From an uncultured Bacilli bacterium (lineage in GTDB: Bacteria > Bacillota_I > Bacilli_A > RF39 > UBA660): DNA of 16,704 nucleotides. Shown here piece after piece: positions 1 through 16,420 of this stretch (its first letter is position 1; each line of letters begins with the position of its first letter). Both the position numbers and the translations under genes were made by a program. The DNA lies in contig CALVQV010000020.1 of the NCBI GenBank assembly GCA_944358325.1, forward strand, positions 1-16,704. Reading direction: 5' to 3'. The notes under the pieces were generated by a model, which worked only from the letters and a program-made list of their open reading frames with translations, ran no database searches and was not told the DNA's origin.

Positions 1-61
1 TATGATATAATTGTTATAGAATAATTAAAATATAGAATATGATAAAATGAATTTACACAGT

Positions 62-110
62 TAAATTTACAGGGTCACACAGTAAATTTACAGGGTCTTA
101 CAGGGTCTTA
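62..110 (+). repeat. Direct-repeat array in the target-gene promoter. The 15-mer TAAATTTACAGGGTC occurs twice (62-76, 83-97; 21-bp period) and the 10-mer CAGGGTCTTA occurs twice in tandem (91-100, 101-110). Core unit is TTACAGGGTC.
   Basis: Exact repeats read directly from the sequence. A degenerate copy, AATTTACACAG, lies at 50-60. The array overlaps the predicted -35 and spacer. Confidence 0.8.
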
Positions 111-116
111 TATAAT
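87..116 (+). promoter_or_regulatory. Putative sigma-A-type promoter of the DGR target gene
   Basis: -35 TTTACA (87-92), 18-bp spacer, perfect -10 TATAAT (111-116). RBS AGGAG at 128-132 lies 7 nt before the ATG at 140. Confidence 0.45.
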
Positions 117-139
117 TTAGATAGAATAGGAGAGAAAAA

Positions 140-1819
140 ATGAAAGAAAAAGGATTCACGCTTATAGAATTACTAGCAGTCATCGTTATATTAGCAGTAA
201 TAGCTTTAATCGCAACACCACTAATTATGGGCGTTATTGATGAAGCCAAAGACGGAGCTAATAAAAGAAGTGTCCAAAGTATAAGAGATGGAGCAGAAAC
301 ATTTTTATTATCTAAAAAAACTTTAGATAGTAATTATACTTTCAATATGAATGATTATCAATTCAAAGGAAATCAATTTGGTAAAGGAACATCTGATGAA
401 AGAATTAATATTGTTTTTAATGATAAAGATGAAGCCAGTGTCGCAGTATATGAAAATAATAAATGTTATTATATCTTAGCAGGATCAAATGAAGTAAAAA
501 GTGAAACAGGCTTAGATAAACAACAATGTTTAGAAAAAGCAGGAGCAACTGAAATAGTAGAAGGAAATCCTCTACTACCACAAATAGAAGCTAACTTATG
601 TACAAGTGAAAAAACAACCGAATGTTATAAAACAGAAGGTAATGAATATATCTATACAGGAGCATATGGAACAGGTGGAGTAAACTGGTTATGGTATGGA
701 GGGCATCAATGGCGTATTATCAAAGTAGATAAAACAACTGGAAGATATACTTTAATTACATCATATCCTGCAACAGCAATTCAATGGCAAAGTAGTATAG
801 CAAATGGGCCATCATTAGAAGAGTCATATGTAGGAAATTGGTTAAATAATGTGTTTGTTGCATCATTACCAACTAATGTTCAATCAAAATTAGAAAATAT
901 GACATATACAAGAAAAGTATATGATGGAAGTAGTGTTGTAGAAGAAGAAATAAGTAATGTTAAAGTTAGACTTCTAACAGAAAATGAATATACAACTTAT
1001 GGCGGAGCAGATAGTTATTTAGATATAAAGGATTGGTGGTGGCTAGCAGATATATATACTTCGTCTCGCGTCCGTAGTGTGAACGACGGCGGCAATTTGA
1101 GCAGCGACAGGCCGTCGAGCGCGAATGGTGTGCGCGCCATTGTGGAAATATCTGATATCACCATCACAGAAGGTGATGGTACTCTTAGCGCGCCATATAT
1201 TGGAAACACAAGTAAAGCTACAAACTTATCAGATATTGCAGTCGGAGAATATATAAGTATTCCTAAAAGTGATGGTGGAACTTATTTAGCCCGTGTTGTT
1301 AAACGTGATCAAAATGGTACAAAAGTTATTCTAAATGGTTTATATAATACAAGTGCTTTTGGAAGTAATGCAACATTTTCAACAAGTAGTACAATTTATA
1401 CAGGAGCTTTAATAGGATTTAAAAATAGTTTAGATAGTAATTATTTTGATGGTACTAATCGTAATTTCAATATGACAACGTATGGAGATGGAGCAAATTA
1501 TGCAGATACAACAACTATGTTTACTGGCAATATCGGACTACCTAGCGTAGGGGAGATGTTTAGTGGAAATGATATAGATGTAACAACTAGTTCTAAAACA
1601 TTTGTAGATACAAGTAAAATATTAAATCCGACATTAAGTTCTTATTATTGGTTAATGAATGCCTATAGTTCGTCTAGCGTCCGTAATGTGAACAACTACG
1701 GCTACTTGAACAACAGCAGTCCGTCGTACACGGGTGGTGTGCGCGCCACTTGGTATATCTCTGATATCACCATTACCGGAGGTAATGGTACTCCTAGCGC
1801 CCCATATACCTTAAAATAG
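140..1819 (+). CDS. DGR target (variable) protein with a type IV pilin-like N-terminus and two tandem VR-bearing ligand-binding-type modules
   Basis: 559-aa ORF. The N-terminus MKEKG/FTLIELLAVIVILAVIALIA matches the prepilin cleavage/methylation motif (Gly-1, Phe+1, Glu+5, hydrophobic helix). Two paralogous modules (about aa 165-355 and 365-559) both end in WW(L)..SS.VR.VN..G.L....PS...GVRA...ISDITIT.G.GT.SAPY. VR1 covers aa 308-334 and VR2 covers aa 511-537. Confidence 0.9.
   Translation: MKEKGFTLIELLAVIVILAVIALIATPLIMGVIDEAKDGANKRSVQSIRDGAETFLLSKKTLDSNYTFNMNDYQFKGNQFGKGTSDERINIVFNDKDEASVAVYENNKCYYILAGSNEVKSETGLDKQQCLEKAGATEIVEGNPLLPQIEANLCTSEKTTECYKTEGNEYIYTGAYGTGGVNWLWYGGHQWRIIKVDKTTGRYTLITSYPATAIQWQSSIANGPSLEESYVGNWLNNVFVASLPTNVQSKLENMTYTRKVYDGSSVVEEEISNVKVRLLTENEYTTYGGADSYLDIKDWWWLADIYTSSRVRSVNDGGNLSSDRPSSANGVRAIVEISDITITEGDGTLSAPYIGNTSKATNLSDIAVGEYISIPKSDGGTYLARVVKRDQNGTKVILNGLYNTSAFGSNATFSTSSTIYTGALIGFKNSLDSNYFDGTNRNFNMTTYGDGANYADTTTMFTGNIGLPSVGEMFSGNDIDVTTSSKTFVDTSKILNPTLSSYYWLMNAYSSSSVRNVNNYGYLNNSSPSYTGGVRATWYISDITITGGNGTPSAPYTLK
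1062..1139 (+). repeat. DGR variable repeat 1 (VR1)
   Basis: 78-nt ungapped alignment to TR 1851-1928 with 13 mismatches. Eleven are at TR adenines (10 A->G, 1 A->C). Two are at non-adenines (TR c1885 vs t1096; TR t1900 vs g1111). It forms a GC-rich island in an AT-rich gene. Confidence 0.85.
1160..1180 (+). promoter_or_regulatory. Hairpin 20 nt downstream of VR1, a candidate DGR target-recognition (IMH-associated) stem-loop
   Basis: ACCATCAC (1160-1167) pairs with GTGATGGT (1173-1180) as an 8-bp perfect stem with loop AGAAG. The position is equivalent to the hairpin after VR2. Confidence 0.6.
1671..1748 (+). repeat. DGR variable repeat 2 (VR2)
   Basis: 78-nt ungapped alignment to TR, offset exactly 180 nt. 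There are 7 mismatches, all at TR adenines (TR 1857, 1877, 1883, 1896, 1907, 1913, 1914; 4 A->G, 3 A->T). Confidence 0.92.
1769..1789 (+). promoter_or_regulatory. Hairpin 20 nt downstream of VR2, a candidate DGR target-recognition stem-loop
   Basis: ACCATTACC (1769-1777) pairs with GGTAATGGT (1781-1789) as a 9-bp stem with loop GGA. Relative to the VR1 hairpin, a C:G pair is replaced by T:A through compensatory changes on both arms. Confidence 0.6.
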
Positions 1820-1850
1820 AGTAAGTATTGTAGGTGTAAGAACAAAAAAG

Positions 1851-1928
1851 CGTCTAACGTCCGTAATGTGAACAACAACGGCAACTTGAACAACAACAGT
1901 CCGTCGAACACGAATGGTGTGCGCGCCA
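1851..1928 (+). repeat. DGR template repeat (TR)
   Basis: Non-coding copy of the VRs, 31 nt after the target stop codon. It has 25 adenines in 78 nt, mostly as AAC/AAT codons in the VR reading frame (S N V R N V N N N G N L N N N S P S N T N G V R A). It ends in the GC-rich GGTGTGCGCGCC shared with both VRs. The 5' edge could extend to about 1841. Confidence 0.9.
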
Positions 1929-2101
1929 GAGCTCCTTGAAACTTAGAGTATATGAGTATTTTGTATATGTGAAGCCATGGAACAGTTCTTATTCCTGGGA
2001 ATATCCTAAAATTACATAAGTTTAATTAAGTTTTGGTAAGTGATGAAGAAGATTAATTAGTAATTCTTATGGGAAAACAGAAGAAATTTTTTCTTCTGTT
2101 T
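1851..2101 (+). ncRNA. Putative DGR RNA (TR plus a downstream spacer of about 145 nt), possibly the 3' UTR of the target mRNA
   Basis: No terminator lies between the target stop (1819) and the TR. The first intrinsic terminator is at 2075-2109. No credible ORF lies in 1929-2074. The 5' end of the RNA cannot be determined from sequence. Confidence 0.4.
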
Positions 2102-2109
2102 TTTAATTT
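2075..2109 (+). terminator. Rho-independent terminator after the TR and spacer
   Basis: AAACAGAAGAAA (2075-2086) pairs with TTTCTTCTGTTT (2090-2101). The core CAGAAGAA/TTCTTCTG stem is followed by a T-rich tract TTTTTAATTTT. Confidence 0.75.
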
Positions 2110-2156
2110 TTAGTATTTTTTTATGATAATTATGATGTTTTATGTTGACATTTTGC

Positions 2157-2183
2157 TTGACACGTGTGTGTGTGTGTTATTAT
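2157..2183 (+). promoter_or_regulatory. Putative promoter of the msl-avd-RT operon
   Basis: Perfect -35 TTGACA (2157-2162) and TG-extended -10 TGtTATTAT (2175-2183). The spacer is 15 bp and consists almost entirely of (GT)7. A second TTGACA lies at 2145-2150. Confidence 0.45.
2164..2177. repeat. (GT)7 dinucleotide microsatellite
   Basis: GTGTGTGTGTGTGT read directly from the sequence. It lies between the -35 and -10 elements upstream of msl. Confidence 0.95.
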
Positions 2184-2198
2184 TTGTTTGGTGATTAT

Positions 2199-2600
2199 AT
2201 GTTATATAAGGTATGGGAATGTTTGAAAGTAAGACATAGTTTTTTTGTTATTTTTATGAAGTATGGTAATTTTTATAAGGTTTATGGTGATGATGTTTTT
2301 ATTGTGTGGAAGATTACGGGGTATCGTGTTATTAATGGTGATCATATTGGTTTTCCTCTTAAGTCTTTAAATGTTGTTTTAAAAAGGTTAGAACTTTTAC
2401 ATGTTAGTTATATTGTTTATGATGGATGTGATGATTATTTGATGGTTGATGATGTTAATAATTGTTACATTAATGTTTTAAGTGAGTTTAAAGATTTATA
2501 TTTAAATGAAGATAGAATTAAAAAGATTGTGGAAAAGTTTGAATTTAAGGTTAGAGAGGATAAGGAAATGCTAGATTATTATGAAGAGTTATGGAAGTGA
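2199..2600 (+). CDS. MutS mismatch-binding domain I-like small protein (MSL-type DGR accessory protein)
   Basis: The ORF track gives 2142..2600. I prefer the ATG at 2199 (RBS GGTGA 2190-2194) because the upstream 19 codons overlap the promoter and GT tract. [33 protein letters not shown] aligns with the E. coli MutS N-terminus [59 protein letters not shown] aligns with [28 protein letters not shown]. The ORF overlaps avd by 20 nt. Confidence 0.7.
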   Translation: [133 protein letters not shown]

Positions 2601-2937
2601 TTTTGTTGTTATTAGGGAGTTTAAGAGTTTTATTTGTGTTGTTGAGGGTGAGTTTGATAATTGTCCTAAAAAGTGTTTATATTTAAAAGATAGTTTATTT
2701 GATATGTGTTATATGGTTTTAGAGGATATTTATGTGTGTAATATGGGGAATAATCGTTTGGTTTATATTAATCGTGTTATTGCTAGGTTAAGGATTATTG
2801 ATTTTATGCTTAAAAGATGTGTAGATATGGGGATTATTAGTTATAAACGTTTTTTATTTTTAGGAAATAAGTTAAATAGTGTAGTGAGAATGTGTTATGG
2901 GTGGTTAAAAAGTGAAAAGAGTAAACTTGAGGTATGA
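2581..2937 (+). CDS. avd: Avd-like accessory variability determinant (four-helix-bundle, 23S rRNA-IVS protein family)
   Basis: 118 aa, located directly upstream of the DGR RT and overlapping it by 26 nt. The helical pattern with a ..F..CPKK.. segment after helix 1 and a C-terminal MCYGWLKS matches the typical Avd layout (fPk.ek ... ml.gw.ks). The call rests on size, position and motifs only. Confidence 0.7.
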   Translation: MKSYGSDFVVIREFKSFICVVEGEFDNCPKKCLYLKDSLFDMCYMVLEDIYVCNMGNNRLVYINRVIARLRIIDFMLKRCVDMGIISYKRFLFLGNKLNSVVRMCYGWLKSEKSKLEV

Positions 2938-3883
2938 TGATGTTTTAAGTTATGAGAATCTTGAATTTATTTATTATATGCTTAGAAAAGGTGTTAAAAA
3001 TAAAGAAAAGTTAGATAAATTTGATTTATATTATAGTTCTAATATAAGTCATATTTATAGTTTGTTAAAAGAAAGAAGATATGAAGTTGGTTCTTATCAT
3101 CTTTTTTATATTTATGAACCAAAGAAAAGGCTTATTATGAGTCAGGGGATTGGTGATAAGATTGTTAATCATTTTGTTGCTTATTTCTATTTAATTCCTC
3201 TTCTTGACCCCTGTTTAATTAATAGTAATGTGGCAGTTAGGAAGAATATGGGAACTAGTTATGGTATTAAGTTATTAAAGAAATATTTTAGTAGTTTTAA
3301 AGGTGATTTTTATATTTTGAAGTGTGATATTAAGGGGTATTTTTATAATATTAATCATGATATTTTAAAAGTGTTGGTTGCAAGAAAGATTAAAGATAAA
3401 GATATTCTTAATTTAGTGTTTAAGATTATAGATAGTGTTGATAGTTATGGTATTGGAGGACTACCTATTGGTAATATGACTAGTCAGATTTTAGGTATAT
3501 ATTATTTAAATGGTTTAGACCACTATATTAAAGAAGTTTTAGGTATTAGGTGTTATATTAGGTATATGGATGATTTTATTCTTCTAGCTCGTGATAAATG
3601 TTATTTGAAAGAGTGTTTAAATAAGATTAAAGCGTATATTAGTGGATTAGGTTTAGAATTAAATTCTAAGACAATGATTAGTAGTAGTAAAAGTGGTGTT
3701 AATTTTTTGGGTTATCATTTTAGTTATGATAAGCATGTAGTTATTAAACCACATAATTATAATAAAAGAAAAATTAAACGAAAAATGAGGTTATATAAAG
3801 AAGGAAAGATAAGTTATAATAGGATTATTTGTTATAAAGGTTATTTTAGTTATTGTTCCCAAAGTAAGACATTTATAGTATAA
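2912..3883 (+). CDS. DGR-type reverse transcriptase
   Basis: 323 aa with a GTG start at 2912 and RBS GGTGG at 2900-2904. RT motifs present: EPKKRLIM, GDKIVNHF, YILKCDIKGYFYNI, LPIGNMTSQ (the DGR-specific IGxxxSQ signature), and RYMDDFILLA (YMDD catalytic box). No maturase, endonuclease or integrase extension. Confidence 0.92.
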   Translation: MKRVNLRYDDVLSYENLEFIYYMLRKGVKNKEKLDKFDLYYSSNISHIYSLLKERRYEVGSYHLFYIYEPKKRLIMSQGIGDKIVNHFVAYFYLIPLLDPCLINSNVAVRKNMGTSYGIKLLKKYFSSFKGDFYILKCDIKGYFYNINHDILKVLVARKIKDKDILNLVFKIIDSVDSYGIGGLPIGNMTSQILGIYYLNGLDHYIKEVLGIRCYIRYMDDFILLARDKCYLKECLNKIKAYISGLGLELNSKTMISSSKSGVNFLGYHFSYDKHVVIKPHNYNKRKIKRKMRLYKEGKISYNRIICYKGYFSYCSQSKTFIV

Positions 3884-3899
3884 TATTAGTGGTGATATT

Positions 3900-4844
3900 A
3901 TGAAAAAAAGAGTGGTTGTTTTAGGTGGTGGGACAGGAATGTCTACTTTATTACGTGGCTTAAAACAATTTCCTATTGATATAACAGCTGTTGTTAGTGT
4001 TTGTGATGATGGAAGAAGTACTGGAAGGTTAAGAGAGGAATTTAATATTCCAGCTGTTGGCGATATTCGTCAAGTTTTAGTAGCACTATCAGAAGTAGAA
4101 CCATTAGTAGAAAATCTTTTAAATTATCGTTTTAAGACGACTAGTGATTTAAATGGTCATACGGTTGGTAATTTACTTTTAACAGCTTTAAAAAATATTA
4201 ATGGAACGATGTCTGATGGGATTGAGTCTTTAGGTAAGATTCTTAATTTAAAAGGTAAAGTTTTACCATTAACAGAGGATAATGTTACTTTAGTAGGTTT
4301 AATGGAAGATGGTAGTAAAATAGAAGGTGAACACAATATTACAGAATCAGATTTAAGAGTTATGGAAGTTAGTTATAAAGATGCACCTATTGTTAATAAA
4401 GAGGTTATTAAAGAAATAAAGCGTGCGGATTTAATTATTTTAAGTATGGGTAGTTTATATACAAGTATTATGCCTAATTTAGTAGTTCCTGAAGTTGTTG
4501 AAGCGATTGAAAATAGTAAGGCTAAAATTATGTATGTTTGTAATATGATGACTCAACCAGGTGAAACTGATGAATATCGTGTTAGTGATCATATTAAAGC
4601 TTTAAATAAGCATTTAGGTAAACGTAGTATTGATATTGTTTTAGTTAATGATGGTGAAATACATCCAGAATTAATTAAAAGATATGCAACTTTAGAACAA
4701 AAAGATCCTGTTTTTTATGATATTGAAGAAGTTAATAAATTAGGAGTTAGAGTTATTGAAGATGATTTTGTTATTTTAGATAGAGAAATGATTCGTCATA
4801 ATTCAATGAAATTAGCTTTTCATATTTTTTCAAATTTAATGTAG
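3900..4844 (+). CDS. yvcK: Gluconeogenesis factor YvcK/GlmR family protein (UPF0052, CofD-like)
   Basis: N-terminal VVVLGGGTGMSTLLRGLK motif. 314 aa. Lies immediately upstream of whiA, as in other Firmicutes. Confidence 0.9.
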   Translation: MKKRVVVLGGGTGMSTLLRGLKQFPIDITAVVSVCDDGRSTGRLREEFNIPAVGDIRQVLVALSEVEPLVENLLNYRFKTTSDLNGHTVGNLLLTALKNINGTMSDGIESLGKILNLKGKVLPLTEDNVTLVGLMEDGSKIEGEHNITESDLRVMEVSYKDAPIVNKEVIKEIKRADLIILSMGSLYTSIMPNLVVPEVVEAIENSKAKIMYVCNMMTQPGETDEYRVSDHIKALNKHLGKRSIDIVLVNDGEIHPELIKRYATLEQKDPVFYDIEEVNKLGVRVIEDDFVILDREMIRHNSMKLAFHIFSNLM

Positions 4845-4857
4845 AATGAGGTGATTT

Positions 4858-5769
4858 ATGTCATTTACAGGTAGTGTTAAAGAAGAAGTTATTAATCTTA
4901 ATTCAAGTGATTTAGAGTCTCGTGCTTGTTTAAGTGCAATAATTCATAATGTTGGTAGTATTACAAATGATAGTATTAAAGTAGTTACGGAAAATAGTTT
5001 ACTTGCTAAATATATTGATACACTACTTAGAGATATATATGATATAACGCCTAAAATTATTGTTCGTAAAGGCTATAATTTTAATAAAAATTATTTATAT
5101 ATTATTGAATTTATTAATAAATTAGATTTAGTTATTAAAGATTTATCTTTAGATGACAATATTCCTAAGGAATATTTATATGATGATAGTGAATTATTAC
5201 GTTCTTATTTAAGAGGTATTTTCTTGGCTGTTGGAAGTATTAATGATCCAAAGAAGTCAAGATATCATTTAGAGTTCTTAGTAGATAGTAAGAAGTATGC
5301 TTATTTTATTATGGATAAGCTTAATAGTTTTAATTTAAATAGTAAAGTTTTAAAAAGAGAAACTAAGTATATGATTTATGTTAAAGAGTCAGAAAAGATT
5401 AGTGATTTTTTAAGACTTATAGGGGCTTCTAAAGCCGTTATGTACTATGAAGATATACGTATATATCGTGATCATGTTAATATGACTAATCGTCTTAATA
5501 ATTGTGAACAAGCGAATGTTGAAAAAACAATTAATGCCTCTAATGAACAAATAAAAGAAATAGAATTATTAAAAGAAAAAGATGTATATGACTTGTTAGA
5601 TGATAAAGTTAAGGAAGTAGCAGTTTACAGACTTAAATATCCTGATGTTTCTTTAACAGAGTTAAGTGAAATAATTTCGGTAGAAACAGGTAATAAAATC
5701 ACTAAATCAGGTCTTCATCATCGTATGCGTAAAATAAAAGAAATGGCTAATAAAGTAAGAAATATGTAG
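4858..5769 (+). CDS. whiA: DNA-binding protein WhiA
   Basis: 303 aa. N-terminus MSFTGSVKEE..., LAGLIDADG-like middle region (YLRGIFLAVGSINDP) and C-terminal HTH (TKSGLHHRMRKI). Conserved yvcK-whiA synteny. Confidence 0.9.
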   Translation: MSFTGSVKEEVINLNSSDLESRACLSAIIHNVGSITNDSIKVVTENSLLAKYIDTLLRDIYDITPKIIVRKGYNFNKNYLYIIEFINKLDLVIKDLSLDDNIPKEYLYDDSELLRSYLRGIFLAVGSINDPKKSRYHLEFLVDSKKYAYFIMDKLNSFNLNSKVLKRETKYMIYVKESEKISDFLRLIGASKAVMYYEDIRIYRDHVNMTNRLNNCEQANVEKTINASNEQIKEIELLKEKDVYDLLDDKVKEVAVYRLKYPDVSLTELSEIISVETGNKITKSGLHHRMRKIKEMANKVRNM

Positions 5770-5782
5770 AAAGGGTGATAGC

Positions 5783-6952
5783 ATGAAATGTATTTTAATG
5801 AATAAAAATATTGAAGTATTAGTTGCTGAGTACGATCAAGAAATTAAAGTTTTTAGTAAGATATATGAAATTAAAAATATTAAATATGCACCATTCCAAT
5901 TAGAAAATGCTTATTATAAAAAAGAAACATTTCGTGCTTCATTATCTGAATGGTTTGTTGGGAGAGGTATTCCATCATGGCGTGATGATTTAGATATTTT
6001 ATTATCTAAATTAAATATATCTACACCTAAAGAATTATTAGATAAAGCTTTTGGTTTGTCATTATCTGATCAATATTGGTTAAAGCCATATAATAGTAAT
6101 ATAAAATATGATGATATAAATTTTTTTGATCATGATTTTCAAGGCTCAGAATTTACTAATATAACATTTTCTTCTAGTAATACAAGTTCTAACAAAGTTA
6201 GTTTAATTTCCCCTAATAATACAACAGATGGGCGATTAAAAAAAACGTGGATTATTGAAAATAAGACAAGATATTTATTAAAGGGTGGTTATAAAAATGA
6301 AGTTATGCAACCATTTAATGAAGTATTAGCAACTATGATATGTAAACGTATGGGGTTTAAACATGTTCCTTATGAGCTTGCTATTGTAAATGATAAAGTA
6401 GTATCTAAATGTCCATGTTTTATTACAAAAGATACAGAATTAATAAGTGCTTATCAAATTCTTCATAATAATTGTCATAAAAATAATGCTTATATTGAAT
6501 ATATTAATATTTTAGAAGAACATGGTATTAAAAATGCTAGAGAAAATTTAGAAGATATGTTTATATTAGATTATCTAATGTTAAATGAAGATAGACATCT
6601 AGGTAATTTTGGTATAATTAGAAATGTTGAAAATTTAAAGTGGCTTGAAACAGCTCCCATTTTTGATACTGGTCAATCATTAAATATTTTAGATTATAAT
6701 GATGAAGAATTACTTATTAATGGTGCAGGAAGATTTTTCTATGAAAGTAATAATTTTGATTATTTACTTACTAAAATAAAAGATATCAAAAGATATGATT
6801 TAAATAAGTTAGATGGGTTATGTGATGAATTTGATAGTTTATTACATAAATATAGTAGTATTACACATATGACTGATAGAAGAATTGATAAAATATGTAC
6901 TTTATTAATGAGTCGTATTAACAAATTAAAAAGGTATATCAAAAGCGTTTAG
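5783..6952 (+). CDS. HipA-like serine/threonine kinase domain protein (orphan, no adjacent HipB/HTH partner)
   Basis: 389 aa. The HipA_C-type catalytic region LMLNEDRHLGNFGII (compare N.DDH.kN) is followed by APIFDTGQSL (compare APlYD). N-terminal SLSDQYWLKP motif. Confidence 0.6.
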   Translation: MKCILMNKNIEVLVAEYDQEIKVFSKIYEIKNIKYAPFQLENAYYKKETFRASLSEWFVGRGIPSWRDDLDILLSKLNISTPKELLDKAFGLSLSDQYWLKPYNSNIKYDDINFFDHDFQGSEFTNITFSSSNTSSNKVSLISPNNTTDGRLKKTWIIENKTRYLLKGGYKNEVMQPFNEVLATMICKRMGFKHVPYELAIVNDKVVSKCPCFITKDTELISAYQILHNNCHKNNAYIEYINILEEHGIKNARENLEDMFILDYLMLNEDRHLGNFGIIRNVENLKWLETAPIFDTGQSLNILDYNDEELLINGAGRFFYESNNFDYLLTKIKDIKRYDLNKLDGLCDEFDSLLHKYSSITHMTDRRIDKICTLLMSRINKLKRYIKSV

Positions 6953-6966
6953 CGCTTTTTCTTTTC
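6941..6966 (+). terminator. Rho-independent terminator after the HipA-like gene
   Basis: AAAAGCG (6941-6947) pairs with CGCTTTT (6953-6959), loop TTTAG (contains the stop codon), followed by TCTTTTC. Confidence 0.6.
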
Positions 6967-6968
6967 TA

Positions 6969-6997
6969 AAGACAAAATTAATAATTTATAGTATAAT
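6969..6997 (+). promoter_or_regulatory. Putative promoter of the DHH-rplI-dnaB cluster
   Basis: -10 TATAAT at 6992-6997. Weak -35 AAGACA at 6969-6974 with a 17-bp spacer. Confidence 0.35.
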
Positions 6998-7017
6998 ATT
7001 ACAAGAAGAGGTGAACC

Positions 7018-7983
7018 ATGGTTGATGTATTTAATAAAATAACCGAAGCAGTTAAAAGTCACGATAAAGTTATTATTATGGCTCATCGTCATATTGATTA
7101 TGATGCTTTAGGTAGTGCTTTAGGATTATATGAAATAGTTAAATCTTTTAATAAAGAAGTAGCTATCTATGTAGATAGTGATTTAAAGGAAATGGTTAAT
7201 ACTAAGTTGTTTGATTTGATTGCTAATTTAGATATTAAATTTATATATAAAAATACTTATCATAAGTTTATAAGTGATAATACTCTTTTAATTATTGTAG
7301 ATACGCATAAAGAAGAAATGCTTGCTAATCACGAATTGTTGAATTGTGTTAAAAATAAAGTTATTATTGACCATCATATTAAAAGCAATGAATATATAAA
7401 AGATGCTTTATTTAGTTATATTGATTCTAATTTATCTAGTATTAATGAGTTTGTAGCTTTTTATTTAAAATATCTTAATAAAAGTGTTGATAGTGTTATA
7501 GCAACTATTATGCTTACAGGAATTGAGTTAGATACTAATGATTTCCATAGCAAAACAACACCTAATACTTTTTTAGCAGCTTCTTATTTAGCTACACTAG
7601 GTGCGAATACTTATGATACTTTAGAACTTATGAAAGAAGATAAAGATGCAACAATTAGAAGAATGAATTATTTAACTAGATCTTATACCATTGATGATGA
7701 AATTATGATATGTCCTTTGGATAGTGAAAAATTACTTCCTAAGGATCTAGCCATCATCTCTGATATGCAAATGAGCTTTACAAATATTGAGTTAGGCTTT
7801 GTTATTGGTAATTTAATTAATGGCAAGGTAGGTATTAGTGCTCGTTCTAGTGGTAAATATGATGTTTCTAAAATAATGCAAGCTTTAGGTGGTGGTGGAC
7901 ATGCTACCGAAGCTGCTGTTCAAATCGAAGGCAAAAGTATAAAAGAGGTTGAAAAAGAGTTAAAAAGTTTATTGAAGAGGTGA
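7018..7983 (+). CDS. DHH/DHHA1 family phosphoesterase (NrnA/GdpP-catalytic-domain-like)
   Basis: 321 aa. Motifs: MAHRHIDYDALGSA, IIVDTH, IIDHH (DHH) and GGGGH (DHHA1). It sits upstream of rplI-dnaB in the position gdpP occupies in Bacillus, but lacks TM, PAS and GGDEF regions. Confidence 0.8.
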   Translation: MVDVFNKITEAVKSHDKVIIMAHRHIDYDALGSALGLYEIVKSFNKEVAIYVDSDLKEMVNTKLFDLIANLDIKFIYKNTYHKFISDNTLLIIVDTHKEEMLANHELLNCVKNKVIIDHHIKSNEYIKDALFSYIDSNLSSINEFVAFYLKYLNKSVDSVIATIMLTGIELDTNDFHSKTTPNTFLAASYLATLGANTYDTLELMKEDKDATIRRMNYLTRSYTIDDEIMICPLDSEKLLPKDLAIISDMQMSFTNIELGFVIGNLINGKVGISARSSGKYDVSKIMQALGGGGHATEAAVQIEGKSIKEVEKELKSLLKR

Positions 7984-7987
7984 ATAT

Positions 7988-8425
7988 ATGAAAGTTATAT
8001 TACTTACGGATGTTAAAAAATTAGGTAAAAAAGATGCGATTATTGATGTTAAAGATGGTTATGGTAATTTTCTTATTAAAGAAAATAAAGCTGTTATTGC
8101 AACATTAGGTAGCATTAATCGTTTAAATAAAGAAAATAGTCTTAAAGCTTTAGAAGAAAATCTTTTGATTAAAGAAATGCAATCTTTAAAAACAAAGATG
8201 GAAAAAGTTAAATATGAAATTAAAGTAAAAACCGGTACAGGAGACCGTGTCTTTGGTAGTGTTTCTACTAAACAAATTGCTGGTATGCTAAAAGAAAAAG
8301 GATTTTCTATTGATAAAAAACAAATTCATTTAGATCATGAATTAACATCTTTAGGAACACATAATGTGGATATTGTTTTACATAAACAAGTAACTGCAAC
8401 AATTAAGATTAATTTAGTTAAGTAG
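7988..8425 (+). CDS. rplI: 50S ribosomal protein L9
   Basis: 145 aa. MKVILLTDVKKLGKKDAIIDVKDGYGNFLI is a typical L9 N-domain. Synteny with dnaB. Confidence 0.95.
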   Translation: MKVILLTDVKKLGKKDAIIDVKDGYGNFLIKENKAVIATLGSINRLNKENSLKALEENLLIKEMQSLKTKMEKVKYEIKVKTGTGDRVFGSVSTKQIAGMLKEKGFSIDKKQIHLDHELTSLGTHNVDIVLHKQVTATIKINLVK

Positions 8426-8433
8426 GTGAAGTT

Positions 8434-9777
8434 ATGGCAGAAAAAATCATGCCCAACAATCTAGAAGCAGAACAATCCGTTTTAGGTAGTATGTTCTTAA
8501 GTAAAAGTGCTTGTCAGAGAGCTCTTGAGTCTTTAACTAAAGAGTCTTTTTATAGTGAAGCAAATGGTAATATTTTTGCTTGTTTAGGAGAATTAATTGA
8601 AGCAGGTAAACCAATTGACATCACAACAGTTACAGCAGCTTTAGATAAGCAAAAATTACTTAAACAAGTAGGTGATGTTGAATATTTAACAGAAATAGTC
8701 AATATTGTTCCAACAGCAGCTAATATTGAAGAATATATTAAAATAGTTTTAGAAAAAGCAACCCTTCGTCGTTTAATTGAAGAAGCAACTAAAATTATTA
8801 ATGATGGTTACAATTCAACTGATAGTTTAAGTGATATTTTAGATAATGCTGAAAGAAAAATTTTAAATGTCGTTAAAACACGTAAAGGTACAGAATTTAA
8901 AAGTATTACCGAAGTTTTATTTAAAACGCAAGCTGATATTGAAAAATTATCACAAAATAAAGGTGAAGTTACTGGAATTGCAACAGGTTTTCGTGATATT
9001 GATAAACTTACAAGTGGTTTCCATGCAAATGAGCTTATTATTGTAGCAGCTCGTCCTGCCATGGGAAAAACAGCTATTGCTTTAAATATGGCTATTAATA
9101 TGGCCAATAGTTCTAAAAAAGCCATTGCTTTATTTAATATGGAAATGGGTGCTGAACAATTAGCGATGCGTATGATTGCTAGTGTTGGTCAAATTAATCA
9201 AGGTAAAATAAGAACAGGTCGACTAGAACATAATGATTGGCGTCGTGTTAATGAAGCAATTAGTAGACTTGCTGATACTAAAATATTTATTGACGATACT
9301 CCAGGTATGACAATAGGTGAAATAAGAGCTAAATGTCGTCGCCTAGCAAGTGAACAAAATGGCTTAGGAGCAATTATAATCGACTACTTACAGCTTATTA
9401 GTGGTGGTGCAAAATATGCCGGAAATCGTCAACAAGAAGTATCAGAAATATCTCGTTCTTTAAAAACTTTAGCTATGGAATTAGAAGTTCCTGTTATTGC
9501 TTTAGCCCAATTATCACGTAGTGTTGAAGGTCGTGATGATAAACGTCCACTTTTAAGTGACTTACGTGAATCTGGATCTATTGAACAAGATGCTGATATA
9601 GTAGCATTCTTATATCGTGATGATTATTATACAAAAGAAATAAGTATTGATGAATATACAAGTAAGAGTGAGTTTATAATCGCAAAACACCGTAGTGGTC
9701 CAACAGCCACAATTGATTTAATATTCAAACGTGATACAGGTACGTTTGTTAATTTCTTAAATGAAGAAGAAAAATAG
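8434..9777 (+). CDS. dnaB: Replicative DNA helicase DnaB (DnaC in Bacillus nomenclature)
   Basis: 447 aa. N-terminus PNNLEAEQSVLGSM, Walker A AARPAMGKTA, IIIDYLQL, and SRSLKTLAMELEVPVIALAQLSR motifs. Confidence 0.95.
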   Translation: MAEKIMPNNLEAEQSVLGSMFLSKSACQRALESLTKESFYSEANGNIFACLGELIEAGKPIDITTVTAALDKQKLLKQVGDVEYLTEIVNIVPTAANIEEYIKIVLEKATLRRLIEEATKIINDGYNSTDSLSDILDNAERKILNVVKTRKGTEFKSITEVLFKTQADIEKLSQNKGEVTGIATGFRDIDKLTSGFHANELIIVAARPAMGKTAIALNMAINMANSSKKAIALFNMEMGAEQLAMRMIASVGQINQGKIRTGRLEHNDWRRVNEAISRLADTKIFIDDTPGMTIGEIRAKCRRLASEQNGLGAIIIDYLQLISGGAKYAGNRQQEVSEISRSLKTLAMELEVPVIALAQLSRSVEGRDDKRPLLSDLRESGSIEQDADIVAFLYRDDYYTKEISIDEYTSKSEFIIAKHRSGPTATIDLIFKRDTGTFVNFLNEEEK

Positions 9778-11256
9778 GTGATAAATTTGAAAAAAATTTT
9801 CTATATATTAATTTTATTTGTAATCGCTGGTGCTTTATTTTCTTTAGGATTTAATAGCAAAAAGCAATATGAACCTAATGTTTATTATCAAGTATATTTA
9901 GAAGATGAAGTTTTAGGTGTTATCAAATCTAAAAAAGAATTAGATGATTATATTGATAAAAAAGGTGATAACATAAAAAAAGAATTAGGTGTATCTAATG
10001 TATATGCGCCTAATGGCATAAAAGTAGAAAAAATTGCTACTTACAATAAAGAAATTAGTAGTGTTGAAGACATCTATAAACAAATTGAAAAAGAAGCTTC
10101 TTTTACTATAAAAGGATATCAATTTACTATTCGTAAAACTAATGAAGAAACAGGCAAAGAAAGTGTTTCATACATATATACAACAACAGAAGATGTATTT
10201 ACTGAAGCTATAACCAGTTTTGTTGAAACCTATATTGGTGAAGAAACATACACAGCTTTTATAAATGGCGATGTTGTAGAGATTACAACAACGGGAAGTA
10301 AAACAGAAAATATATATATTAATGAAGATATAACTATCAAAGAAAGATATATACCTACAACTGAAAAAATATATAATAATAGTAAAGAACTATCACAATT
10401 TTTACTATTTGGAAAAAATATTGAAATGAAAGAGTATACAGTAAAAGCTGGTGAAACCTTAGAACAAATAGCTTATAATAATGAAATCAGTGTTAATGAA
10501 TTAATATTATCTAATCCAGATTTTTCTGGTGAAAATCAGTTGGTATTTGCTGGACAAGTTATTACGATAGGTGTACCAGATCCACAATTAAGTGCTGTTA
10601 TTGAAGAATATGTTGTGGAAGATCAAGAAGTAGCTTATACAACGGTTGAAGTATATGATGAGACAATGAATATGGGACAAATGGAAGTACGTCAAAATGG
10701 CGAAAATGGTACTGTCCGTGTTGCTCAACGAGTTAAAACAGTTAATGGGGTTGTTACTTATGTTGAACCAGTAAGTAAAACTGAATTAAAGCCGACAGTT
10801 AATAAAATAGTTGCTTTAGGTTCAAAATATATACCAACAGTTGGATCTACCAAAGATTGGCGTTGGCCTACTGATAGTGGATGGCGTATTACAAGTTCAT
10901 ATGGATGGCGTATTGATCCATATACTGGTTCTCGTTCTTTCCACAATGCTATAGATATTGCTGGTACAGGATATGGTTCAAATATTTATGCTGTTACTAA
11001 TGGTGTAGTATATCAAAGTGCTTATACATCTGTTAACGGTTATTATATAATTATTAATCATAATAACGGTTATTATACTTATTATGGCCATATGATTAGA
11101 AAATCACCACTTACAGTTGGATCTACAGTTGCTAAAGGAGACGTTATAGGTTATGTAGGATCTACAGGAGCTGCAACAGGACCACACGTTCACTTTGCTG
11201 TATGGGTTGGTATACCATGGCGTGGTTACCATATAAATCCACTTAGTATGTATTAA
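9778..11256 (+). CDS. Membrane-anchored LysM-G5-M23 family metallopeptidase
   Basis: The N-terminal TM is IFYILILFVIAGALF. LysM is YTVKAGETLEQIAYNNEISVNELILSNP. A G5-like segment is VEVYDETMNMGQMEVRQNGENGTVRV. The M23 motifs are HNAIDIAG and GPHVHFAV. The start is uncertain: GTG at 9778, or TTG at 9787 with RBS AGGTGA at 9776-9781. Confidence 0.8.
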   Translation: MINLKKIFYILILFVIAGALFSLGFNSKKQYEPNVYYQVYLEDEVLGVIKSKKELDDYIDKKGDNIKKELGVSNVYAPNGIKVEKIATYNKEISSVEDIYKQIEKEASFTIKGYQFTIRKTNEETGKESVSYIYTTTEDVFTEAITSFVETYIGEETYTAFINGDVVEITTTGSKTENIYINEDITIKERYIPTTEKIYNNSKELSQFLLFGKNIEMKEYTVKAGETLEQIAYNNEISVNELILSNPDFSGENQLVFAGQVITIGVPDPQLSAVIEEYVVEDQEVAYTTVEVYDETMNMGQMEVRQNGENGTVRVAQRVKTVNGVVTYVEPVSKTELKPTVNKIVALGSKYIPTVGSTKDWRWPTDSGWRITSSYGWRIDPYTGSRSFHNAIDIAGTGYGSNIYAVTNGVVYQSAYTSVNGYYIIINHNNGYYTYYGHMIRKSPLTVGSTVAKGDVIGYVGSTGAATGPHVHFAVWVGIPWRGYHINPLSMY

Positions 11257-11257
11257 T

Positions 11258-12022
11258 ATGGAAATATCAGTTCTAGCTACAGGAAGTAAAGGAAATTGTA
11301 CCTATATCAAAACTAATAATCATAAAATATTAGTTGATTTAGGTACTACTTCTTTATATGTTGAAAAGCAACTAAAAGATTTAAACGTTGAACCAAAAGA
11401 GATAGATAGTATATTTATAACTCATACCCATGTAGATCATATTAATGGTTTAAAAGTATTTATAAAAAAATATAACCCAACAATCTTTTTAACTAATAAA
11501 ATGTATCAAGAATTAGTAAAAATGTTACCAATTACTAATTATTATTTATTAGAAGAAGATACTGTTATAGATGATTTAATTATTCATGTATTTAAAACTT
11601 CACATGATGTTGAAGATTCTAATGGCTATATATTTGAAAGTGATAATAAAAGTATTGTATATATTACAGATACAGGCTATATTAACGTTAAATATCATAA
11701 AATGTTAGTTAATAAAGACTTTTATGTGATGGAAAGTAATCATGATGTAAGAATGCTTATGGATGGTAAATATCCATATCATTTAAAACAACGTATTGTA
11801 GGTGATAGAGGTCACTTATCCAATAAAGACTCTGCTAACTATTTAGCTAATTTTATTGGTGATAAAACTAAAGGAATTGTCTTAATCCATTTAAGTGAAG
11901 ATAATAATACTCCTGATATTGCTTATAATACTTTAAAACAAACATTAGAAAGAAGAAATAAACAAGTAGATAAAATATTAATTTCTAATCAAAGAGAACA
12001 TACGGAGTTGATAACTTTATGA
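11258..12022 (+). CDS. MBL-fold metallo-hydrolase (YycJ/WalJ-like)
   Basis: 254 aa. HTHVDH metal-binding motif, and GNCTYIKT at the N-terminus. Overlaps rlmH by 4 nt (ATGA). Confidence 0.8.
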   Translation: MEISVLATGSKGNCTYIKTNNHKILVDLGTTSLYVEKQLKDLNVEPKEIDSIFITHTHVDHINGLKVFIKKYNPTIFLTNKMYQELVKMLPITNYYLLEEDTVIDDLIIHVFKTSHDVEDSNGYIFESDNKSIVYITDTGYINVKYHKMLVNKDFYVMESNHDVRMLMDGKYPYHLKQRIVGDRGHLSNKDSANYLANFIGDKTKGIVLIHLSEDNNTPDIAYNTLKQTLERRNKQVDKILISNQREHTELITL

Positions 12023-12474
12023 TAAAAATTATTGCAGTTGGAAATATTAAAGAATCTTTCTTTAAAGAAGCCATCTTAGAATACCAAAAACGTATATCCA
12101 AATATACTAAGTTAGAAATTATTGAAGTTAAAGATTATGATTTAGATAGTCCTAATTTAAATATGGAAAAAGAAAAAGAAGCCATATTAAAGCATATTAC
12201 ACCTAAGGATTTTATAGTTACTCTAGTCATTGAAGGAAAAGAAATGACTAGCCCATCTTTTGCTGAAGCTTTAGATAAATGGTTTATGCAAAAAGGTAAT
12301 ATAACATTTATTATTGGTGGATCAAATGGTTTAAGTAAAGAACTAAAAGATATGAGTAACTTTCAATTATCTTTTTCACCTATGACTTTTCCACATCAAT
12401 TATTTCGTATAATTTTACTTGAACAAATATATCGTGCTTATAAAATAAAAAATAATGAATCTTATCATAAATAA
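12019..12474 (+). CDS. rlmH: 23S rRNA (pseudouridine1915-N3)-methyltransferase RlmH
   Basis: 151 aa SPOUT-type. MIKIIAVGNIKESFFKEAILEYQKRI, and a C-terminal IGGSNGLS...SFSPMTFPHQLFRIILLEQIYRAY. Confidence 0.9.
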   Translation: MIKIIAVGNIKESFFKEAILEYQKRISKYTKLEIIEVKDYDLDSPNLNMEKEKEAILKHITPKDFIVTLVIEGKEMTSPSFAEALDKWFMQKGNITFIIGGSNGLSKELKDMSNFQLSFSPMTFPHQLFRIILLEQIYRAYKIKNNESYHK

Positions 12475-12487
12475 GTATAAAAAAATA

Positions 12488-12522
12488 AAAAACCGCTCAT
12501 TAAAAAATAGGAGGCGGTTTTT
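12488..12522 (+). terminator. Possible weak terminator or hairpin after rlmH
   Basis: AAAAACCGC (12488-12496) pairs with GCGGTTTTT (12514-12522), but the loop is 17 nt and contains the spoIIR RBS AGGAGG. This is poor geometry for a terminator. Confidence 0.3.
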
Positions 12523-12524
12523 AA

Positions 12525-13049
12525 ATGAAAAAAACCATAATATTAACTATTATTATCATCATCTTTATTATAATTACTAACTCGGTAAAACAAGATTTAG
12601 TAAAAATACCTAAAGAAGCTATTAGAATTCGTGTTCTAGCCAATAGTAATGATAACTATGATCAAGAAATGAAAAAACAAGTAAAAGAATTGGTAGCTAA
12701 TCAATTATATCCCAAATTAAATAATGTCAAGAATATTAATGAAGCAAGGAAGGTTATTAACAATAATATTGATAATATAGAAAAAAATATTAATACTTTC
12801 TTTACACAAAAAAAATATAATCAAAATTATGAAGTGATTTATGGATTAAATTACTTTCCGGAAAAAGAATATAAAGGTGTTTATTATGATGAGGGTTATT
12901 ATGAATCATTACTTGTAACAATCGGTGATGGTTCTGGCGATAATTGGTGGTGTGTTTTATTCCCACCACTATGTTTGATGGAGGCCGAAGAAAGTGAAGA
13001 AGTAGAATATAAATTTTTCGTTCAAGAATTAATTGATAAATACTTTTAG
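12525..13049 (+). CDS. spoIIR: Stage II sporulation protein R
   Basis: 174 aa with a signal/TM N-terminus. IPKEAIRIRVLANSN and GDGSGDNWWCVLFPPLC are diagnostic of the SpoIIR family. Confidence 0.88.
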   Translation: MKKTIILTIIIIIFIIITNSVKQDLVKIPKEAIRIRVLANSNDNYDQEMKKQVKELVANQLYPKLNNVKNINEARKVINNNIDNIEKNINTFFTQKKYNQNYEVIYGLNYFPEKEYKGVYYDEGYYESLLVTIGDGSGDNWWCVLFPPLCLMEAEESEEVEYKFFVQELIDKYF

Positions 13050-13059
13050 TAATATCTAA

Positions 13060-13093
13060 AAAACTTCCATCGTAAAATATGGTGGAGGTTTTT
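13060..13093 (+). terminator. Hairpin plus T-run after spoIIR. Its 3' arm contains the mntP Shine-Dalgarno sequence.
   Basis: AAAACUUCCAUC (13060-13071) pairs with GGUGGAGGUUUU (13081-13092) as a 12-bp stem including 2 G.U pairs. The loop is 9 nt and the T-run is 13089-13093. Confidence 0.45.
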
Positions 13094-13618
13094 ATGTGGA
13101 AAATAATACTTATTGCAGTTAGTTTATCAATGGATGCTTTTTCGCTTTCACTTTCCTATGGAACTAATGGTATAAAAGAACATGATATTAGAAAGATTGC
13201 TATAACAGTGGGCATTTTTCATTTTTTTATGCCATTATTTGGTTTATTAATGGGAAGTACTTTACTTTTTTTTATAAAAATAAATACGGATATTTTAGTT
13301 TTTGTCATTCTTACTTTTATTGGTATTGAAATGTTAGTAGAAAGTTTTAAAGAAAGAGAAGAAATTCATCTTATTTCTTTAGTAGAATTATTACTTTTCG
13401 CACTAGCAGTTAGTTTAGATAGTTTATCTGTTGGTATAGGCCTTAAAGCAATAACTAATCAGTATATTACTAGTTCTATTATATTTGCCTTAACAAGTTT
13501 TATGTTCACTTTTACAGGCTTAAAAATAGGTAAATATGCTAATCTTAAATTAGGAACTATTGCGACTATTATAGGTGGTATTATTTTAATAATTTTAGGA
13601 TTACTATACATATTATAG
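13094..13618 (+). CDS. mntP: Manganese efflux pump MntP family protein (DUF204)
   Basis: Two DUF204 repeats (SMDAFSLSLSYG and SLDSLSVGIGL) in a polytopic membrane protein. The ATG at 13094 is preferred over 13079 because GGAGG at 13084-13088 lies 5 nt upstream of it. Confidence 0.8.
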   Translation: MWKIILIAVSLSMDAFSLSLSYGTNGIKEHDIRKIAITVGIFHFFMPLFGLLMGSTLLFFIKINTDILVFVILTFIGIEMLVESFKEREEIHLISLVELLLFALAVSLDSLSVGIGLKAITNQYITSSIIFALTSFMFTFTGLKIGKYANLKLGTIATIIGGIILIILGLLYIL

Positions 13619-13630
13619 TGTCTAGTCTAA

Positions 13631-13659
13631 TTGCTATTTTATAAAAAAACATTTATAAT
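13631..13659 (+). promoter_or_regulatory. Putative fba promoter
   Basis: -35 TTGCTA (13631-13636), 17-bp spacer, -10 TATAAT (13654-13659). Confidence 0.5.
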
Positions 13660-13675
13660 ATATATTGGTGATAAT

Positions 13676-14521: not shown

Positions 14522-14548
14522 ATAAACATATAATATATTGGAGGTTGT

Positions 14549-15802: not shown

Positions 15803-15803
15803 T

Positions 15804-15829
15804 AAAGAGTGAAATACTCTTTTTCTTTT
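15804..15829 (+). terminator. Rho-independent terminator after murA
   Basis: AAAGAGT (15804-15810) pairs with ACTCTTT (15816-15822), loop GAAAT, followed by TTTTCTTTT. The stem is AT-rich and therefore weak. Confidence 0.5.
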
Positions 15830-15838
15830 GGAGGATAT

Positions 15839-16420
15839 ATGAAAAAAATAATCATTACTATTGCTGTTACTTTGACTGTCCTTTATATTTATCAAATATT
15901 TAAAGATGACAAAATATACTATGTAAATATTGGTGATAACTTATTAACAGATAAAAGTTATGCTGATTTTATAGTAAAAGAATTTGATGGAGAACTAGAA
16001 GAATATAATTCTTCATTTACTAATCAAAAATATCAAACAACAGATTTAATAAACGCTTTTGAAGATAATTTAAAAATAGATAATAAAACAATTAAAAACC
16101 TTGTAATAAAAGCAGATATAGTAACAATATCGGTAGGTAACAATGACATAGATCGAAAAAATTTAACTAAAGAATATATTGATGAAGTTATAAGTGATAT
16201 TGATATATTACTTAAATTAGTCAAAAAATGGTGTAAAGAAAAGGTTGTATTAATAGGTTTAAATAATGAGTATGCTAATCTAAAATTAAAAAATAAAGCT
16301 AAAGAATATAACTTTATTTATATTGATATATATAGTTATAGTTCTCTTTATAAGGATGAAGATAAAATTAATATTTTAGGACATAAACACATTTCCGAAG
16401 AAATTATTGACAAGTTATAA
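15839..16420 (+). CDS. Membrane-anchored SGNH/GDSL-hydrolase-like protein with a degenerate block I (GDN instead of GDS)
   Basis: The ATG at 15839 (RBS GGAGG 15830-15834) is preferred over 15809. The N-terminal TM is IIITIAVTLTVLYIY. VNIGDNLL resembles block I, ISVGNNDI resembles block III (GxND), and a C-terminal LGHKH is present. Confidence 0.5.
   Translation: MKKIIITIAVTLTVLYIYQIFKDDKIYYVNIGDNLLTDKSYADFIVKEFDGELEEYNSSFTNQKYQTTDLINAFEDNLKIDNKTIKNLVIKADIVTISVGNNDIDRKNLTKEYIDEVISDIDILLKLVKKWCKEKVVLIGLNNEYANLKLKNKAKEYNFIYIDIYSYSSLYKDEDKINILGHKHISEEIIDKL

Follow-up and report, generated by a model that had tools for sequence, protein, structure and literature searches.

The window analyzed here, the whole 16,704-nucleotide (nt) stretch of contig CALVQV010000020.1 (positions 1 to 16,704, forward strand) from the uncultured Bacilli assembly GCA_944358325.1, contains a complete diversity-generating retroelement (DGR) whose target gene (positions 140 to 1819, + strand) encodes a 559-residue, modular, type IV pilin-like protein with two variable modules. 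The gene order is target, template repeat (TR), MSL, avd, and reverse transcriptase (RT) gene, with two variable regions (VR1 and VR2) inside the target. The target open reading frame (ORF) exists as it had been described in an earlier, sequence-only reading of the window, which had also proposed that the protein is a hypervariable pilus subunit. The window is a low-GC (25 to 30% guanine plus cytosine) stretch of chromosome in which every long ORF lies on the + strand. Taken as a whole, i.e., the retroelement, its modular type IV pilin target, and pilus display together, we consider it likely that the locus is a chromosomal DGR of a spore-forming gut bacterium, an uncultured member of the Bacilli with low GC, and that the cell probably uses a pilus to present an adhesin that can change.

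One template repeat and two variable regions

A 78-nt sequence is present in three copies, all on the + strand. VR1 (1062 to 1139; residues 309 to 333, SRVRSVNDGGNLSSDRPSSANGVRA) and VR2 (1671 to 1748; residues 512 to 536, SSVRNVNNYGYLNNSSPSYTGGVRA) are inside the target ORF, and the noncoding TR (1851 to 1928) is located just past its stop codon; no further TR-like copy was found in the window. Read in the frame of the VRs, the TR (SNVRNVNNNGNLNNNSPSNTNGVRA) has 11 AAY codons plus AGT and ACG. VR1 has 13 mismatches to the TR, 11 of which fall at TR adenines, and VR2 has seven, all at adenines (7/7). Because adenines occupy only 25 of the 78 TR positions yet carry 18 of all 20 VR differences, the adenine bias is far from chance. 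Each VR recodes 13 codons of a predicted beta-hairpin and loop, corresponding to ~1.4e14 peptide variants per VR by our own count (15^11 x 4 x 4).

Both VRs share the GC-rich 3' end GGTGTGCGCGCCA and are followed by a hairpin ~20 nt to the 3' side (both on the + strand): ACCATCAC-AGAAG-GTGATGGT at positions 1160 to 1180 after VR1 (z of -2.8) and ACCATTACC-GGA-GGTAATGGT at positions 1769 to 1789 after VR2, the two stems differing by a compensatory C:G to T:A change. No hairpin of this type follows the TR. Over about 50 VRs of related loci, the stems covary (ACCTTCAC/GTGAAGGT, TACCTACAC/GTGTAGGTA, and CTGAAGTC/GACTTCAG), with the pairing kept. In the DGR of the Bordetella phage, a hairpin or cruciform 3' of the VR belongs to target recognition. 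The corresponding combination, a GC-rich 3' end plus a hairpin that is not found on the TR, can be read from the window sequence, and by analogy the two hairpins are candidate target recognition elements. Both VRs are real DGR targets. Both hairpins are encoded within the conserved coding stretch ISDITIT(E/G)G(D/N)GT.

The spacer on the 3' side of the TR (1929 to 2114, +) ends, according to a terminator scan, in a 15-bp terminator-like hairpin (2072 to 2104) and a T-run. It is probably the 3' part of the DGR RNA, in which it could act as the priming spacer, as in the Bordetella phage element. The terminator-like hairpin sits between the TR and the MSL gene, which suggests that the target gene and the TR form one transcription unit ending ahead of the cassette genes.

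The MSL-avd-RT cassette

Downstream of the target are three intact ORFs, overlapping or closely spaced and all on the + strand. The first (2142 to 2600; 152 residues) is the MSL accessory gene, the product of which resembles MutS domain I (Pfam MutS_I, 21.1 bits against a cut-off of 20.6). Its homologues occupy the same place, ahead of Avd and RT, at two loci, L040 and L049, of related metagenome-assembled genomes (MAGs; loci of relatives are designated by L and a number). The second ORF (2581 to 2937; 118 residues) is the probable avd accessory gene. Its product matches the PHROG family "Avd protein of DGR" (E of 3.4e-8), NF033474 (34.1 bits, E of 2.6e-8; under the curated cut-off of 80), and Pfam bAvd (19.8 bits, E of 1.2e-3; under the cut-off of 40), and the gene has the size, location, and RT gene overlap usual for avd. 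The third ORF (2912 to 3883; 323 residues) encodes the RT (RVT_1, 2.6e-16; phrog_1423, 7e-80), which contains IGNMTSQ at residue 186 and YMDD at residue 218. RTs of the DGR type have [ILV]GxxxSQ in place of QGxxxSP, in addition to YxDD, and both motifs are thus seen here. The combination of MSL and avd corresponds to DGR architecture D of Wu et al. (2018), the class defined in PMC5758913, and the element is a complete DGR of that type.

The cassette (2142 to 3883) is nearly cytosine free on its coding strand (2.2 to 5.5% C, against 8 to 13% in neighboring genes), with a GC skew of 0.55 to 0.84. At codon position 2, C accounts for just 1.7 to 5.6%, so that Ala, Pro, and Thr codons are rare. The same depletion was observed in the homologous cassettes L040:12060-13789 and L049:15085-16811 (2.6 to 2.7% C, against ~8.5% in the flanks).

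The target gene encodes a type IV pilin-like protein

The target is preceded by a Shine-Dalgarno-like AGGAG at about positions 128 to 132 (+) and starts with MKEKG|FTLIELLAVIVILAVIALIATP. The motif MKEKG|FTLIE is directly readable, with Gly at -1, Phe at +1, Glu at +5, and Pro at mature position 22. The sequence-only reading had taken this for a prepilin cleavage/methylation signal with Glu at +5 and had made its case depend on pilin hidden Markov models; the search that it proposed agreed, with matches above the cut-offs to Pfam N_methyl (PF07963; 30.3 bits against 21.2, residues 2 to 25) and TIGR02532 (30.2 bits against 16.3). In an alignment of 105 homologues, residues T7, L8, E10 (Glu +5), L11, and P27 (mature Pro22) are invariant. 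The profile of this alignment matches solved type IV pilins, best of all 8pfb, PilE1 of Streptococcus sanguinis (E of 5.6e-11), and next MshA, PilA, Neisseria PilE, GspG, and PpdD. Some of these alignments extend past the helix (profile positions 5 to 140 against residues 1 to 143 of 8p3b). The AlphaFold2 model of the whole protein, built with the same alignment (predicted local distance difference test score [pLDDT] of 76; predicted template modeling score [pTM] of 0.65), has a 55-residue helix (residues 8 to 62) and a small beta-sheet (residues 89 to 123), followed by two globular modules. Because the N-terminus scores above the cut-offs of the pilin models, the profile matches solved pilins, and the model has the helix and beta-sheet head, the target is, as far as sequence and modeling can tell, a type IV pilin-like protein.

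The pilin module (140 to 616, +; residues 1 to 159) is predicted to comprise the five-residue leader MKEKG, a cleavage site at G5|F6, Glu at +5, a hydrophobic alpha-1 helix, and a beta-sheet head, with Cys109/Cys130. Cysteines are present at residues 109, 130, 154, and 162; the sequence-only reading had the last three right and had placed the first at residue 108. Among the named pilins, ComGC (28.7 bits, cut-off of 75) and GspG (28.5 bits, cut-off of 88.85) were rejected as identities, the matches being confined to the N-terminal helix, and other named pilin models scored far under their cut-offs and in the helix region only.

Two paralogous DUF6273-type modules carry the variable regions

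The pilin module is followed by variable module 1 (617 to 1204, +; residues 160 to 355), a lectin-like domain of the DUF6273 type in which VR1 occupies the C-terminal end, and by its paralogue, variable module 2 (1205 to 1816, +; residues 356 to 559), with VR2 at its C-terminal end. The layout of two paralogous modules, each ending in a VR, had been noticed in the sequence-only reading and is borne out by an hhalign comparison (residues 160 to 355 against 356 to 559; probability of 99.3%, E of 3.5e-20, 154 columns). BLASTP between the two halves aligns the last 58 residues only (E of 8e-16), and the order of helices and strands in the AlphaFold2 model is identical in the two modules. Module 1 matches Pfam DUF6273 (PF19789; 27.4 bits against a cut-off of 23.5) over residues 214 to 335, and module 2 is tied to this family solely via its homology to module 1. 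In a separate model of residues 160 to 356 (pLDDT of 83; pTM of 0.83), VR1 forms a beta-hairpin (strands 311 to 314 and 320 to 323) and then a loop, in line with published DUF6273 variable regions, for which a beta-hairpin with loops has been predicted (PMC10743442).

The placement of the VRs had also been likened to that in DGR variable proteins with a C-type lectin fold or of the DUF1566-like kind. VR1 does close the DUF6273 domain, as in known phage DGR targets; Foldseek gave no significant similarity to Mtd or TvpA. The single significant solved relative of module 1 in Foldseek was 9qa6 (E of 1.9e-5; TMq of 0.60), the N-terminal DUF6273 domain of the Thomasclavelia ramosa immunoglobulin A (IgA) peptidase (PMC12402451), which was also the only Protein Data Bank match of the whole protein. 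In a viral library, 24 matches had an E of 0.001 or lower, and nine of these are named DUF6273-domain proteins. Canonical C-type lectin domains matched module 1 at an E of 2 to 3 only, and neither Mtd nor TvpA was among the best 50 matches. Because Mtd, TvpA, and the canonical lectins gave no significant scores, we file the modules as DUF6273 and leave the C-type lectin label to the literature.

The variability of the modules is concentrated where the TR has adenines. Across the 105 homologues, the mean column entropy was 2.75 bits at the 26 codons with a TR adenine at position 1 or 2, compared with 0.68 bits at the other VR codons and 0.78 bits elsewhere in the modules. Of the 30 positions that vary most within residues 160 to 559, 22 are TR-adenine codons, and these are split between the two VRs. 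The nearest relatives are 90 to 91% identical to the target elsewhere and share 7 of the 26 residues at these codons.

A dispersed gene family probably diversified in trans

At least 2,925 related proteins are present in databases, and many of these have 550 to 575 residues with N_methyl plus DUF6273. Among species-representative genomes, 106 relatives were identified in 77 loci. Nearly all of the hosts are MAGs labeled uncultured Bacilli, in addition to "Candidatus Faecisoma merdavium" and one "uncultured Tenericutes." The best-sampled MAGs have four to seven or more paralogues each, and the relatives carry sporulation and wall genes (SpoIVA, a SpoIIGA-type peptidase, PASTA, and FtsW).

MSL-Avd-RT was next to a family copy at only 2 of 83 loci (L040 and L049), and the remaining copies are scattered in unrelated housekeeping contexts. 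Synteny with the window (target, CofD-like, WhiA, DHH, L9, DnaB, M23, MBL, and RlmH) is seen at loci L033 and L047, where the cassette is missing. At L033, an orphan TR-like remnant with a 1-nt deletion (L033:11792-11868) is located 3' of the syntenic paralogue, with no RT nearby, and the intact cassette of the same MAG is at another paralogue, L040. The orphan TR suggests that cassettes have been lost from or moved between copies. In a copy situated 37 kb from the L040 cassette, the VR departs from the TR type of its clade at 10 adenines and at no other base, which favors the view that remote copies are, or at least once were, diversified in trans. The window gene is one of a dispersed family whose VRs were probably diversified in trans by a single cassette.

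Pilus machinery of the lineage and proposed display

Related MAGs contain a gene for a PilC-type platform protein (T2SSF, 6.6e-49; Myxococcus xanthus PilC, 1e-49) and one for a PilD-type peptidase (A24_N_bact, 2.4e-33, plus Peptidase_A24). At L024, pilC and pilD are directly 5' of a family member, and the pair is also present at L038 and L064. A PilB-type ATPase (T2SSE, 8.5e-126) is encoded at L057, 1.3 kb from a gene for a 1,517-residue protein with N_methyl, immunoglobulin (Ig)-like, and DUF6273 domains, and the MAG of L057 also has the DGR cassette at L049. In 1.19 Mb of flanking sequence, an initial Walker A regular expression detected no ATPase of the T2SSE type; this one, like PilC and PilD, emerged with other motifs. 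Small pilins of 119 to 149 residues, encoded beside valS, are conserved in the lineage. No pilus genes turned up beside family members on long metagenome contigs or beside the small pilins. The lineage possesses the parts needed for type IV filaments and uses the pilin signal widely.

The prepilin-type N-terminus (MKKGFTLIELLAVI...) was also seen on other large passengers in the same MAGs (L001:6296-7783, L006:17730-18752, L057:6770-11323, and L081:2747-3850). These comprise a 495-residue protein with DUF285/leucine-rich repeats, the 1,517-residue protein with Ig-like repeats and a terminal DUF6273 domain, and proteins of 340 and 368 residues, the C-terminus of the last of which reads like a DUF6273-type module. 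Modular pilins have expanded across the lineage. Just 3' of pilC-pilD at L038 ("Ca. Faecisoma merdavium"; L038:4444-7637), there are three tandem paralogous ORFs of 215 to 218 residues with a common N-terminus (MERSSRVIAVVALCVAV.GLTLGFAAFSN.LTI), followed by a gene for an S24/S26-type signal peptidase, an arrangement that we liken to a TasA/SipW-like fiber operon.

In the mechanism that we propose, the TR RNA would be reverse transcribed by the RT together with Avd, with template adenines being copied unfaithfully, by analogy with the Bordetella phage element. The complementary DNA would then replace either of the two 78-nt VRs in the one gene, each VR being marked by the shared GC-rich 3' end and the hairpin ~20 nt farther 3'. 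For the 559-residue product, we infer cleavage, incorporation into a fiber, and a ligand: a PilD-type peptidase would cleave the protein after Gly5, and a PilB/PilC machine would present it, its likeliest position being the tip of a type IV pilus, or of a short pseudopilus that would carry it across the cell wall. The two variable faces would serve as changeable binding sites for a host, microbial, or phage ligand. We place it at the tip by comparison with S. sanguinis PilB, capping of a fiber having been proposed for modular pilins (PMC8179133).

Alternative explanations

Several observations weigh against display of a diversified adhesin on a pilus. There are no pilus or peptidase genes in the window, the family genes and the small pilin genes of the relatives are mostly scattered outside pilus operons, and a 559-residue subunit is too large to pack in the body of a pilus. 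In addition, as described above, the structure comparison gave no significant similarity to Mtd, TvpA, or canonical C-type lectin domains. The prepilin-type N-terminus might serve as a secretion signal and membrane anchor only, in which case the protein, whether cleaved or not, would stay tethered by its hydrophobic helix or be held in a very short pseudopilus and would be a surface receptor and not a pilus subunit. Archaeal sugar-binding proteins with class III signal peptides offer a parallel. Such an anchor would suit the many unrelated large passengers that bear the same N-terminus in the same MAGs, as with a general display signal, the lack of linkage of most family genes to pilus genes, and a protein too bulky for a fiber shaft. 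However, small pilins capable of forming a fiber are conserved in the lineage; PilC, PilD, and a PilB-type ATPase are found in relatives, at times adjoining family members; and the invariant residues include Glu +5 and Pro22, which matter for assembly and not for anchoring. The organisms are also walled, and a protein this large, if tethered in the membrane, might not extend beyond the wall. On these grounds we regard an anchor without a pilus as unlikely and prefer display on a pilus.

Whether the element is still at work bears on the same explanation. The two VR1 differences that are not at TR adenines are both at third codon positions, many relatives' VRs have numerous nonadenine differences from the two reference TRs, and a second assembly of a near-identical strain (protein P0243) has the same two VRs, its sole change being D340N in the hairpin-encoding stretch after VR1. 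All three count against our explanation, the last with regard to current activity. They would fit a relic, i.e., a gene no longer diversified, the VR differences of which are fossils of past activity, as would the relatives' copies, which are mostly without a cassette, and the frameshifted TR remnant at the syntenic L033. The nonadenine differences in the relatives could reflect decay or, alternatively, species-specific TRs that were not seen. We nevertheless think a relic improbable: the three cassette ORFs are intact with the RT motifs preserved, the VR2 differences are confined to adenines, the TR retains its 11 AAY codons, both VR hairpins are intact, and close relatives that are 91% identical elsewhere are almost unrelated at the TR-adenine codons. 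Judged from the intact cassette and the adenine-only VR2, the RT may be active at present. It is far less credible still that the gene encodes the receptor-binding protein of a phage or prophage with its DGR, as do the DUF6273 targets of Faecalibacterium phages, and we hold this to be extremely improbable. The closest structural relatives beyond 9qa6 are phage DUF6273 proteins, and the RT matches the phage RT family phrog_1423. However, the flanks are housekeeping genes (yvcK/CofD-like, whiA, rplI, dnaB, rlmH, fba, murA, and rpmE), other MAGs share the syntenic locus, the window contains neither capsid nor tail nor integrase genes, and the protein begins with a pilin signal and not with a tail fiber anchor. 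A prophage origin was rejected on the basis of the housekeeping, syntenic context.

Comparison with known systems

The sequence-only reading had suggested that a pilin would be a distinct platform for DGR display and that catalogues of DGR targets should be searched for prepilin N-termini. The platform is less unprecedented than had been hoped, in that pilin-type targets have been cited, although only in passing in the literature searched. A catalogue from 2024 (PMC11661182) lists, as rare, a "G-type pilin" domain holding a VR, and PMC6642488 cites, for proteins with a DUF1566 domain, "putative pilin structures." The supplements of Roux et al. (2021) contain no entry for PF07963, N_methyl, or a pilin, and a literature search for DGRs with pseudopilins or type IV pili gave nothing relevant. 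The literature searched contained no description of a type IV pilin diversified by a DGR, of DUF6273 domains in a tandem architecture with two VRs, or of a multicopy family of this kind.

The variable domains resemble those of DUF6273-bearing DGR targets in phages (Faecalibacterium prophages Lelie, CP11, Roos, and Pioen; the nd4/nd12 "tentaclins"), which belong to the same variable domain family and have the VR at the C-terminal end; in these targets, a beta-hairpin with loops is the predicted structure of the VR, and one TR can serve two VRs, as here (PMC11792537 and PMC10743442). The phage targets, however, are virion proteins, located in the tail or Ig decorated, with one variable domain per protein, whereas the carrier here is a type IV pilin module encoded on a cellular chromosome, with two variable domains in tandem. 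The carrier, in turn, resembles the modular type IV pilins of S. sanguinis (a von Willebrand factor A [vWA] module in PilB and a lectin module in PilC; Raynaud et al. 2021, PMC8179133), in which bulky modules that bind ligands come after a short pilin module bearing a class III signal peptide and the host is likewise a monoderm. It is also S. sanguinis PilE1 (8pfb) that is the best solved match of the pilin module. The S. sanguinis pilins have vWA and concanavalin-like passengers and no associated hypermutation, whereas the target described here has two DUF6273 passengers, the predicted binding loops of which would be rewritten by a retroelement.

In the gut bacterium Bacteroides, the tip proteins of type V pili are established DGR targets (bioRxiv 10.1101/2024.11.15.621889), and there too a DGR varies the ligand-binding end of a pilus adhesin. 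Type V pili, however, are derived from lipoproteins and assembled by strand exchange, in contrast to a type IV pilin with an N-methyl signal, and the phylum, the variable domain family, and the cassette type (MSL plus Avd here) also differ. TvpA of Treponema, LdtA of Legionella, and Mtd of Bordetella phage BPP-1 share with the window the adenine-specific transfer from TR to VR into the C-terminal ligand-binding domain of a surface-displayed protein, and the Legionella element also has an MSL gene (PMC5758913). Unlike the target described here, these proteins are anchored by a lipoprotein signal or a tail fiber and have a single VR each, and Foldseek gave no significant match between their structures and module 1. 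The Thomasclavelia ramosa IgA peptidase, whose N-terminal DUF6273 domain is similar in fold to module 1, is likewise from a gut member of the Bacilli; that domain, however, is part of a metallopeptidase anchored by sortase, and no DGR diversifies it. Every component of the system is already known, and the combination is barely described.

Few surface machines are as widespread as type IV pili, and DGRs are, to our knowledge, the only known prokaryotic system of targeted protein hypermutation. How a simple fiber gains new binding specificities is an open theme in the type IV pilus field, and a pilin with two grafted modules rewritten by a DGR would join the two topics. The family would provide a defined, small system in abundant uncultured gut Bacilli in which to ask for the ligand, be it host glycans, mucus, IgA, partner cells, or phages, and a compact display scaffold consisting of a pilin anchor and two domains tolerating about 1e14 variants each. 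Its value is limited in that the components are all known and pilus display is so far a proposal. A broader proposal, which we put forward tentatively and with some doubt, is that the type IV pilus machinery of this lineage is a general display system for paralogous, pilin-borne, lectin-like adhesins, several per genome and with two hypervariable sites each, all rewritten in trans by one MSL-Avd-RT cassette. If true, pili would carry a receptor repertoire that is combinatorial and diversified somatically, and no such role has been described for type IV filaments.

Other features of the window

A search of the window against Rfam gave zero matches. A gene for a HipA-like kinase (HipA_C, 1.8e-8) is present at positions 5783 to 6952, between whiA and the gene for a DHH phosphoesterase; no HipB-like partner was seen. 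The gene is missing at the syntenic loci L033 and L047, where whiA is directly beside the DHH gene.

Upstream of the target gene, the best promoter-like site is a candidate sigma-70-like promoter (87 to 116, +; TTTACA-18-TATAAT, 11 of 12 matches to the consensus), 24 nt 5' of the start codon; it is a consensus match only, and the count of such sites in the region is not above the shuffled expectation. This site is overlapped by tandem direct repeats (55 to 110, +), namely, a 21-nt unit present twice and the 10-nt unit TTACAGGGTC present 2.3 times (TRF scores of 79 and 46, respectively), which may be an operator or another regulator binding site.

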